Shown here piece after piece: positions 30,455 to 30,700 of a DNA stretch of 64,000 nt. The notes under the pieces were generated by a model. It was given only the letters and a program-made list of their open reading frames with translations, did no database searches and had not been told where the DNA came from. The position numbers were made by a program, and so were the translations under genes. The DNA comes from Escherichia phage heid. The DNA lies in sequence record MN850577.1; one strand, given 5' to 3'. Every line of letters begins with the position of its first letter. Position 1 is the first letter of the stretch.

Positions 30455-30700
30455 TTGGGGAGAGGGGGAGTAAGAGGGGGAGAGGGGTTGGGCTGGCTGT
30501 CTATAAAAACCTACCTGCACAATTCTAAAATGATTTTTCTTGCCCGACCTGAGCGGGGTCTGCACGTTTTGAAAATGAAAAAGCTCTTTGGAGATTACCT
30601 GCACAGTTTGAAAATGAATTTTCTCTTTGGAGTTCAAAATTTTCTCTACAGATTTCTCTACAGAACTCTACCTGCACAATTCTGAAATGAAAAAGCCCTC
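30455..30700. repeat. intergenic regulatory-like region: G-tract cluster and 3-4 direct repeats TACCTGCACA(A/G)TT(C/T)T(A/G)AAAATGA
   Basis: G-runs GGGG-AGA-GGGGG-AGTAAGA-GGGGG-AGA-GGGG-TT-GGG at 30467-30493; repeat copies at about 30511-30533, 30595-30617, 30668-30690 and a partial copy at about 30560-30578; also tctctacagatttctctacag. Confidence 0.5.

Follow-up and report, generated by a model that had tools for sequence, protein, structure and literature searches.

The 64-kb stretch of DNA analysed here (the window) is, judging by its database matches, that of a Felix O1/wV8-like phage of the genus Felixounavirus. A megablast search with positions 29800-31600 matches 230 phage records, and the top ones, which include wV8, fjerdesal and the O157 typing phages, are Felixounavirus sequences at 95-97% identity. 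The repeats and the G-rich tract with which we are concerned lie inside a 523-bp gap free of open reading frames (ORFs), 30241-30763, around which the minus strand carries every gene. On one side stands the macro-domain ('phosphatase') gene (30764-31549, minus strand; from the ORF list, Pfam Macro, E 1e-7), the last of the upstream operon. Its homologues are annotated as phosphatase or macro-domain protein in wV8, Mordin and Omen, and it is the syntenic anchor of the repeat array in all lineages. On the other side begins an array of small genes, the first of which (29860-30240, minus strand; from the ORF list) belongs to the wV8 gp014 family and varies between relatives. The first-pass annotation had placed the repeats and the tract between these two genes, and this placement is correct.

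The macro operon ends in an intrinsic terminator, identified by a terminator scan at 30683-30734 (minus strand) and already annotated in wV8, KhF3 and ASO1B, which comprises a hairpin of 17 pairs (30693-30734) and a U tract, UUUUUCAUUUC, which is complementary to the A5 and the AAATGA part of repeat unit 4. At the far end of the gap, a promoter scan identifies the early sigma-70 promoter of the small-gene array (30307-30357, minus strand; an annotated promoter in ASO1B), with TTGACT at 30335-30330 and TAGTAT at 30312-30307 separated by 17 nt, and an AT-only tract of 21 bp (30337-30357) upstream of them. Between this promoter and the repeats there is an AT-rich block (30407-30456, assigned to no strand), which includes the -35 element of a candidate plus-strand promoter, P(+), and otherwise lies upstream of it. 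Along the transcribed strand, 5' to 3', the macro gene comes first, then the terminator, the repeats, the G/C tract, the AT-rich block, the early promoter and the small-gene array.

Anatomy of the repeat array

Three or four direct repeats of 23 bp, spaced 75-90 bp apart, had been reported at this locus. The repeats are real, with three good copies and one degenerate copy that together hold four shared cores, but the unit is 22 nt long, the earlier consensus containing one surplus A. In its original form the 23-mer has a single copy at three mismatches or fewer, whereas the corrected 22-mer, TACCTGCACARTTYTRAAATGA, matches at 30512, 30596 and 30669 with 0-1 mismatch (0.01 expected); the degenerate fourth copy is at 30557. 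The spacing was close for the three best copies, which are 84 and 73 bp apart, but all four cores follow one another at 45/39/73 bp, start to start. These cores conform to an 18-nt pattern, TGCAC[AG]N5[AG]AAAT[GA]A, at 30516, 30561, 30600 and 30673, all on the plus strand, where 0.03 would be expected by chance in the 64-kb window. The rest of the window holds zero further copies of this pattern, and the complete 87.7-kb genome of a relative has no core outside the array locus, so that the array is unique in the genome.

Unit 1 (30512-30533, plus strand) carries the core TGCACAATTCTAAAATGA at 30516-30533, followed by T5, and is conserved in all lineages. Unit 2 (30557-30578, plus strand) has a degenerate 5' end, the core TGCACGTTTTGAAAATGA at 30561-30578 and then A5, while in unit 3 (30596-30617, plus strand) the core TGCACAGTTTGAAAATGA at 30600-30617 is followed by ATTTT. 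The sequence CTCTTTGGAG occurs after both, at 30584-30593 beyond the A5 of unit 2 and at 30623-30632 beyond the ATTTT of unit 3. The 73-bp gap that separates units 3 and 4 is explained by a degenerate unit without the TGCAC core (30634-30668, plus strand), which contains TTCTCTACAGA twice (30642 and 30654) and is partly kept in Mooglevirus as CTGTCCAGAGTTCT. Unit 4 (30669-30690, plus strand) has the core TGCACAATTCTGAAATGA at 30673-30690, and its A5 runs into the terminator hairpin. An A5 or T5 run is thus found after every core, and the repeats are direct rather than palindromic, with a spacing that is not in helical phase. The motif is bipartite with a fixed internal spacing, a form that might just as well be recognised on double-stranded DNA.

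The array has no coding potential. Changes in spacing of 1-2 bp break the frames, the ORFs differ in every lineage with none common to all, and the core positions are invariant whatever the codon phase. Small proteins (a 76-aa ORF on the plus strand; ORFs of 50 and 70 aa on the minus strand, annotated in Felix O1 and wV8) were likewise rejected, their frames being broken; the annotated ORFs that we tested as coding were Felix O1 ORF31-34 and wV8 gp013, and no frame is kept across relatives. Nor does the array have a conserved RNA fold, as RNAalifold gives a consensus of -6.9 kcal/mol with 0 covarying pairs over 280 columns. A search of Rfam returned nothing better than E 2.6 in 30100-30900, and in the window as a whole tRNAs are the only hits above the gathering threshold. 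A genome terminus or direct terminal repeat was also discarded: the ends of the UAB_Phi87 genome, which have been mapped experimentally (PMC4837284), are a 542-bp duplication that maps to 9601-10142 of the window, and 30468-31000 is present twice in only 1 of 222 records. A Chi site does not explain the locus either, the exact octamer being found in the metagenomic lineage L101 only and the window matching at 6/8. The array is not annotated in any record examined and is absent from the genome papers searched, and our literature search found no description of it or of transcription at the locus.

Conservation of the array and the two alleles of the G tract

The repeats are present in every relative examined, other genera included: they are found in Felixounavirus, Suspvirus, Mooglevirus, Kolesnikvirus and L101, and in Suspvirus, Mooglevirus and Kolesnikvirus a gap of the same kind follows the macro gene. 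Omen, MM7, SB18 and Coenus have four cores each, and Mordin-like and SUSP-like phages have three to four. L101, whose macro protein is about 46-50% identical, has five, and it has a second array, of TGTTAA repeats. Across lineages whose macro proteins are about 46-65% identical, three to five copies of the core are kept, while the spacers between cores are not alignable across groups and the units stand at 45/39/73, 43/39/73, 45/41/75, 39/37/37 or 38/36/112/36. With Suspvirus and Mooglevirus the intergenic sequence can be aligned at 74-80%, and with Kolesnikvirus, a group of Erwinia phages, only its repeats can be. Compared pairwise, 17 distinct Felixounavirus sequences are 97-98% identical over 30560-30650, whereas most of the macro gene reaches about 92-95%; 30410-30439, within the AT-rich block, is 100% identical, and the block is nearly invariant in Mooglevirus and Suspvirus as well. 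The arms of the terminator hairpin differ in the Mooglevirus and Si3 lineages, yet the module of core, A5 and hairpin is kept, and it persists in Si3-like phages even though both their macro gene and their hairpin are other alleles.

This pattern marks the repeat cores as a nucleotide motif under purifying selection. The array is probably functional, since it occurs once per genome, is non-coding and is kept across the whole subfamily of Felix O1 phages (Ounavirinae), and it most likely represents either a non-coding RNA or a set of protein-binding sites.

The G tract behaves quite differently. It occupies 30457-30492 on the plus strand and was described as five G-runs within about 30 nt; the five runs are there, GGGG (30457-30460), GGGGG, GGGGG, GGGG and GGG (30490-30492), separated in turn by AGA, AGTAAGA, AGA and TT, but they span 36 nt. 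The tract is a near-homopurine quasi-mirror repeat: 30457-30487 is homopurine save for one central T and forms a near-perfect mirror repeat with 14-nt arms around TAA. With runs of G4-5 and loops of 3, 7 and 3 nt, it resembles canonical G-quadruplex and H-DNA motifs, and it is the sole match to four G3+ runs with N1-7 loops on either strand of the 64-kb window, where 200 shuffles gave a mean of 0.07. The potential for a quadruplex on the plus strand, as proposed, is predicted to be strong, by the motif itself, by a G4Hunter score of 2.36 in 25-nt windows, the maximum of the window, and by folding energies, which are -27.0 kcal/mol for the tract when quadruplexes are allowed and -16.3 kcal/mol without. 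Single-stranded, the tract is thus predicted to prefer a four-tetrad quadruplex by about 11 kcal/mol.

Unlike the canonical motifs to which it may be compared, however, the tract is polymorphic. Between the invariant TTGACTTTT (30448-30456) and unit 1, relatives carry one of two unrelated 53-nt segments of equal length. Allele G, which contains the tract, is found in the window, wV8, Felix O1, UAB_Phi87 and HY02, and its G-run pattern survives substitutions in allele-G Felixounavirus, Suspvirus and Mooglevirus; allele B is found in VpaE1 and most other Felixounavirus. Among GenBank phages, allele G is present in 109 records, about 71 of them at 90% identity or more (these being Felixounavirus), and allele B in 140, such that the tract is replaced in about 140 of about 210 Felixounavirus records. 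As it is missing from about two-thirds of close relatives that have the same flanking genes, the G tract cannot be essential to the role of the conserved repeats. Being one of two interchangeable alleles, a quadruplex here could at most tune expression and would not be required.

Four assemblies break inside the G tract: two IMG/VR contigs stop exactly at 30467, where one continues into a Nextera adapter, and two GenBank records have an end no more than 11 bp away from there. These breaks had suggested a genome terminus, and they are the only indirect hint of quadruplex folding. In practical terms, the tract repeatedly breaks short-read assemblies, and some genomes deposited as 'complete' are without about 200 bp here.

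Plus-strand promoter signals and possible roles of the array

Three lineages carry promoter-like sequences that point at the repeats on the plus strand. In the window, the candidate P(+) (30448-30476, plus strand) consists of a -35 element TTGACT (30448-30453), a 17-nt G-rich spacer and a -10-like TAAGAG (30471-30476). It was read from the sequence, is not called by the promoter scan of the window and is weak, at 5/6 for TTGACT and 3/6 for TAAGAG, the latter without T at -7. Allele B has, at the same positions, TTGACT-17-TGgTAGCCT, with an extended -10 and a spacer that is variable between relatives, and the -10 region of allele G reads TAAGAG or TAATAG; in both alleles a 'TA' stands exactly 17 bp past the invariant TTGACT. 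The conservation of this 'TA' may have another cause, given that Kolesnikvirus has a homologue, GTA(A)GAGGGG, without a preceding -35. Kolesnikvirus has instead a near-consensus plus-strand promoter found by the scan, TTGACG-18-TATACT (10/12), whose hexamers are invariant while five bases of the spacer differ in SB18, and which is arranged back to back with the early promoter of the minus strand, facing into non-coding sequence. In the two haplotypes of the hairpin downstream of it, there are two compensatory pairs and an invariant U.G pairing possible only on the plus strand, with predicted folding energies of -14.1 and -8.4 kcal/mol on the plus strand versus -8.8 and -4.1 kcal/mol on the minus strand. 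In L101 neither a clear plus-strand promoter nor a terminator is seen. None of the plus-strand promoters described leads into a conserved ORF, and the terminal hairpin, when read on the plus strand, is without a U tract. Tandem sigma-70 promoters inside the units were considered after two were called in Omen (TTGCCA-17-TAAAAT or GAAAAT), and were rejected, since neither the window nor most of the lineages have a fitting geometry. On balance, it seems to us likelier that a plus-strand non-coding transcript passes through the array in the subfamily than that it does not.

We tentatively propose, at a probability of roughly 0.35, that the array is an antisense non-coding RNA that displays repeated single-stranded motifs. 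In this model, a plus-strand promoter, antisense to every neighbouring gene, would read into a tandem series of four or five units, about 37-45 nt long, each of which would show an unstructured 18-19-nt UGCAC(R)-N5-(R)AAAAUGA and then an A5 or U5 run. The transcript would extend to, or through, the terminator hairpin of the macro operon, giving a non-coding RNA of 250-350 nt that could act as a multivalent single-stranded binding platform and hence as a sponge or decoy for a host or phage RNA-binding protein or endoribonuclease. The G tract in the window would provide the spacer, the surroundings of the -10 and the first transcribed bases of P(+). Plus-strand transcription in this phage, the action of the motif as RNA and the identity of its partner are the parts of this model that we infer. 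The lack of a conserved structure, the tolerance of 2-bp indels and the unphased spacing fit independent sites on a flexible single strand, and AAAAU is present in every unit.

Ranking close behind, and itself a tentative reading, is the suggestion that the repeats are DNA iterons, i.e., sites for a host or phage protein on double-stranded DNA that would mark a replication origin or form another nucleoprotein assembly. At an origin, the plus-strand promoter may activate or prime replication, as in T4 or T7, and the AT-rich block may be the unwinding element. This would account for a promoter that points into non-coding DNA, and it agrees with a single locus per genome holding at least three direct repeats of about 20 bp in one orientation, with a distance of about one helical turn between the core halves, an A5 or T5 tract behind each core, promoters nearby and an adjoining AT-rich block that is perfectly conserved. 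The second array of TGTTAA repeats in L101 points the same way, as do the four unit starts of Kolesnikvirus (CTATGCACA or TTATGCACG), which match the DnaA box TTATNCACA at 8/9 positions; the cores of the window, however, are 3 mismatches away from this box, and DnaA boxes were rejected there. Known iteron origins (lambda, P1, F and R6K) are tightly phased, whereas the spacing here is out of helical phase and shifts by 2 bp from one relative to another (45/39/73, 43/39, 45/41, 39/37/37 and 38/36). Furthermore, no replication initiator is annotated in the Pharokka-annotated relative PP886229, there is no inflection of GC skew at the locus beyond the G tract itself, and the most AT-rich 150 bp of the window are elsewhere, at 60629-60780, between divergent genes by the DNA polymerase gene.

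The remaining readings strike us as improbable. The first-pass annotation took the repeats for operators of a regulator that controls entry into the small-gene array, and recognition sites as such are a reasonable proposal for repeats that are real, non-random, non-coding and under purifying selection. The conserved repeats do share their gap with the early promoter, and the divergent or nearby promoters suggest a regulatory region, but the geometry is poor for operators that gate the small-gene array, and we consider such a role unlikely. The cores are direct, asymmetric and unphased, and they lie just past the terminator of the previous operon. They stand 180-380 bp upstream of the early promoter's -35 (30335), with a GC-rich segment and either the G tract or allele B in between. 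While the repeats are constant, relatives differ in the first downstream gene and in some of the sequence next to the promoter, and the other early promoters of the small-gene array, though themselves repeated, do not have the motif. Hardly more probable is an element that acts in minus-strand RNA, as read-through or 3'-UTR of the macro operon, in processing, decay or Rho loading, with the C-rich complement of the G tract as a rut-like site that backs the intrinsic terminator. Unit 4 is fused to the U tract of the terminator, with core, A5 and hairpin kept together across differing hairpin and macro alleles, and allele G would give a 36-nt run that is about two-thirds C, with no G, and no A in its 31-nt centre; in L101, which is without the terminator, the array would be transcribed from this strand. 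Yet in most lineages the array is beyond the strong 17-pair terminator, and the C-rich minus-strand RNA that had been envisaged would arise only by read-through past it. Allele B, moreover, yields a G-rich and not a C-rich minus-strand RNA, so a Rho rut site could explain allele G only and was rejected, and the Kolesnikvirus hairpin favours the plus strand. As unlikely as the operators, in our view, is an array without function, made of decayed tandem duplications of a terminator-proximal segment whose similarity is kept by frequent recombination of co-infecting relatives, and which would amount to a recombination linker between exchangeable cassettes. The region is indeed mosaic: besides the two tract alleles there are different left flanks, and Si3-like phages have other macro alleles. 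Units 2 and 4, moreover, are alike beyond the core (AAAAAGCYCT..ACCTG). A lack of function is difficult to reconcile with a conservation above that of adjacent coding sequence, and with the same 18-nt core in 3-5 copies between unalignable spacers in lineages as distant as their macro proteins indicate.

Likeness to known systems and significance

If read as RNA, the array shares individual features with known systems. Type III antitoxin arrays (ToxI/AntiQ) and the pseudo-ToxI of phage PhiTE have a promoter, tandem non-coding repeats and a hairpin on one strand. The array recalls this layout with its repeats of 36-45 nt, a promoter that is strong in Kolesnikvirus, plausible in allele B and weak in the window, and a hairpin that has no U tract on the plus strand. 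The unit length, 36-39 nt in its probable ancestral form, fits that of type III antitoxin repeats, which are 31-62 nt long with a mean of 38 (PMC3401426), and the units carry an A-rich AAAAU comparable to the target of ToxN, whose cleavage motif is GAAAU (PMC10853763). Loci of the toxIN type are also found on plasmids of the host genera, in 55 E. coli and 12 Salmonella records. Unlike ToxI systems, the array has no toxin gene adjoining it, and where ToxI repeats are near-identical, its units have only an 18-22-nt core in common; RNAalifold, which does not model pseudoknots, shows no stems in it that might form one. It is not a copy of an enterobacterial ToxI, and could not be aligned to the P. 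atrosepticum/E. coli (Pa), E. cloacae and IncF types that made up our comparison set (z < 2.4, versus 17-24 between true ToxI variants).

Blastn against 5,426 E. coli genomes and against 72,556 plasmids found no host homologue, and a pattern scan of 185,579 species genomes returned unrelated tandem repeats only, bar one true toxIN locus (L047/L121). This locus is genuine, with a promoter, two repeats of 37 nt, a terminator and a ToxN/AbiQ gene (Pfam E 2.7e-47), and its repeats carry the exact TGCAC-N6-AAAATGA core, although the match was selected by the search pattern itself and a single one is compatible with chance given the search space. We entertain, as a long shot, the proposal that all Ounavirinae carry an anti-defence RNA gene whose pseudo-antitoxin-like or decoy repeats titrate a host endoribonuclease toxin; it is kept at so low a rank because of the pattern-selected match and because enterobacterial ToxI is unlike the phage units. 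The antisense promoter would, in that case, drive UGCAC-N6-AAAAUGA repeats with an ancestral period of about 37 nt, and the target would be a type III toxin–antitoxin (TA) toxin or another AAAU-cutting RNase released during infection.

CsrB, RsmY and RsmZ are small RNAs that sequester proteins, and in RNAs of this type, as in the array, a short motif repeated between variable spacers is the sole conserved feature. The Csr/Rsm motifs are GGA in hairpin loops, whereas the motif of the array is bipartite, 18-19 nt long and set in unstructured AU-rich RNA, within a putative transcript of a virulent phage. As DNA, the locus is comparable to lambda ori, P1 oriR, T4 oriE/oriF and the T7 primary origin as iteron-type and transcription-activated origins are generally understood. 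The common features are a single non-coding site, several direct repeats of about 20 bp, A/T tracts, an AT-rich block close by and a promoter that reads in. The array departs from these origins in its unphased and variable spacing, in having no initiator gene beside it, in a DnaA-box match confined to Kolesnikvirus and in the presence of a more AT-rich divergent region at 60.6-60.8 kb.

Felix O1-like phages are classical typing phages that are now used in biocontrol and therapy, but little has been established about how their transcription is programmed, where their replication starts or what counter-defences they have, and their temporal regulation was described by Whichard et al. as not understood (PMC3185647). 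By the sequence comparisons presented here, the array locus is the best-conserved non-coding element found in their early region. Should it prove to be an RNA decoy, it would represent a new class of phage counter-defence and, in the anti-defence version, the first subfamily-wide, naturally fixed RNA decoy of such a kind in virulent enterobacterial phages; should it prove to be an origin or a protein-loading site, it would supply the missing cis element for replication in the subfamily Ounavirinae.

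Assembly breaks at the G tract

Breakpoints fall inside the G tract, at window positions 30465-30478, in four independent assemblies (the database loci L011 and L012, and GenBank ON210138 and MK482690). Position 30467 is the exact end of two IMG/VR contigs, one of which runs into Nextera adapter sequence, while the EC106 record starts at 30465 and is without about 215 bp (30250-30464), and the LMP34 record ends at 30478. That four assemblies are broken within one tract suggests a block to sequencing or assembly at this point, and likewise suggests that the segment here is absent from some records described as 'complete'.

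Features of the early-promoter and repeat-array region

The mRNA of the first small gene carries a G9 run in its 5' UTR (C9 on the plus strand, 30288-30296), which can base-pair with a CUCCCC stretch located a few nucleotides further on. At this position phage wV8 has CCCTCCCC, and the surrounding 53 bp are annotated in wV8 as DR_6, a member of a group of several promoter/5'-UTR repeats flanking the small genes; this repeat resembles the promoter-early-stem-loop cassettes of T4-type phages. A perfect palindrome, GTGCGCAC, occupies 30379-30386 in a GC-rich patch with the minus-strand early promoter on one side and the conserved AT-rich block on the other, and relatives carry differing sequences there that are likewise palindromic (GCGTGTACGC, CGCACGTATGCG). 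Specific to Kolesnikvirus is a hairpin that lies downstream of the plus-strand promoter and ahead of the repeat array (L005:1391-1421 in Erwinia phage Omen; columns 207-237 of alignment A2), in which two compensatory base-pair changes distinguish the Omen/SB18 from the MM7/Coenus haplotypes.

Similar repeats in metagenomic sequences

Five units of the window's repeat core, spaced at 36-38 bp, are present in a distant metagenomic relative (L101:600-1040, IMGVR_UViG_3300045988_063805) that had no GenBank phage match. This lineage also holds about ten ArcA-box-like TGTTAA direct repeats and, within a G-rich patch, the exact Chi octamer GCTGGTGG; no terminator follows its macro gene. Long tandem arrays of 21-bp period with the unit YTTTGCAC-N7-AAAATGA occur in bacterial MAG contigs (L049, L058, L062, L063, L065, L073 and L074) from Prevotellaceae, Ignavibacteriales and Caldilineaceae genomes, and no neighbouring gene is consistent across this set. 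The pattern may have matched tandem repeats by chance here, or the arrays may form a repeat family not yet described. An Acetatifactor MAG (L047:6583-7200/L121) contains an unannotated type III toxin-antitoxin locus, in which a TTGACA promoter is followed by two 37-nt repeats, a terminator and a 159-aa ToxN/AbiQ toxin matching Pfam PF13958 (E 2.7e-47).

Genome ends and a candidate origin

The genome ends of UAB_Phi87 have been mapped experimentally, with a DTR of 608 bp (PMC4837284). The record of this phage has the same 542 bp at each of its ends, and this stretch corresponds to window 9601-10142, which places the physical genome ends inside the tRNA cluster, overlapping the ORF at 9810-10367. 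Beside the cluster, the minus strand encodes a 471-aa protein with DUF2828 and DUF7788 domains (13888-15300), whose counterpart in a Pharokka-annotated relative is labelled 'RNA-binding protein'. The window's most AT-rich 150 bp (60629-60780, 79% AT), which lies between divergently transcribed genes and adjoins the DNA polymerase gene, makes a conventional candidate for the origin of replication.
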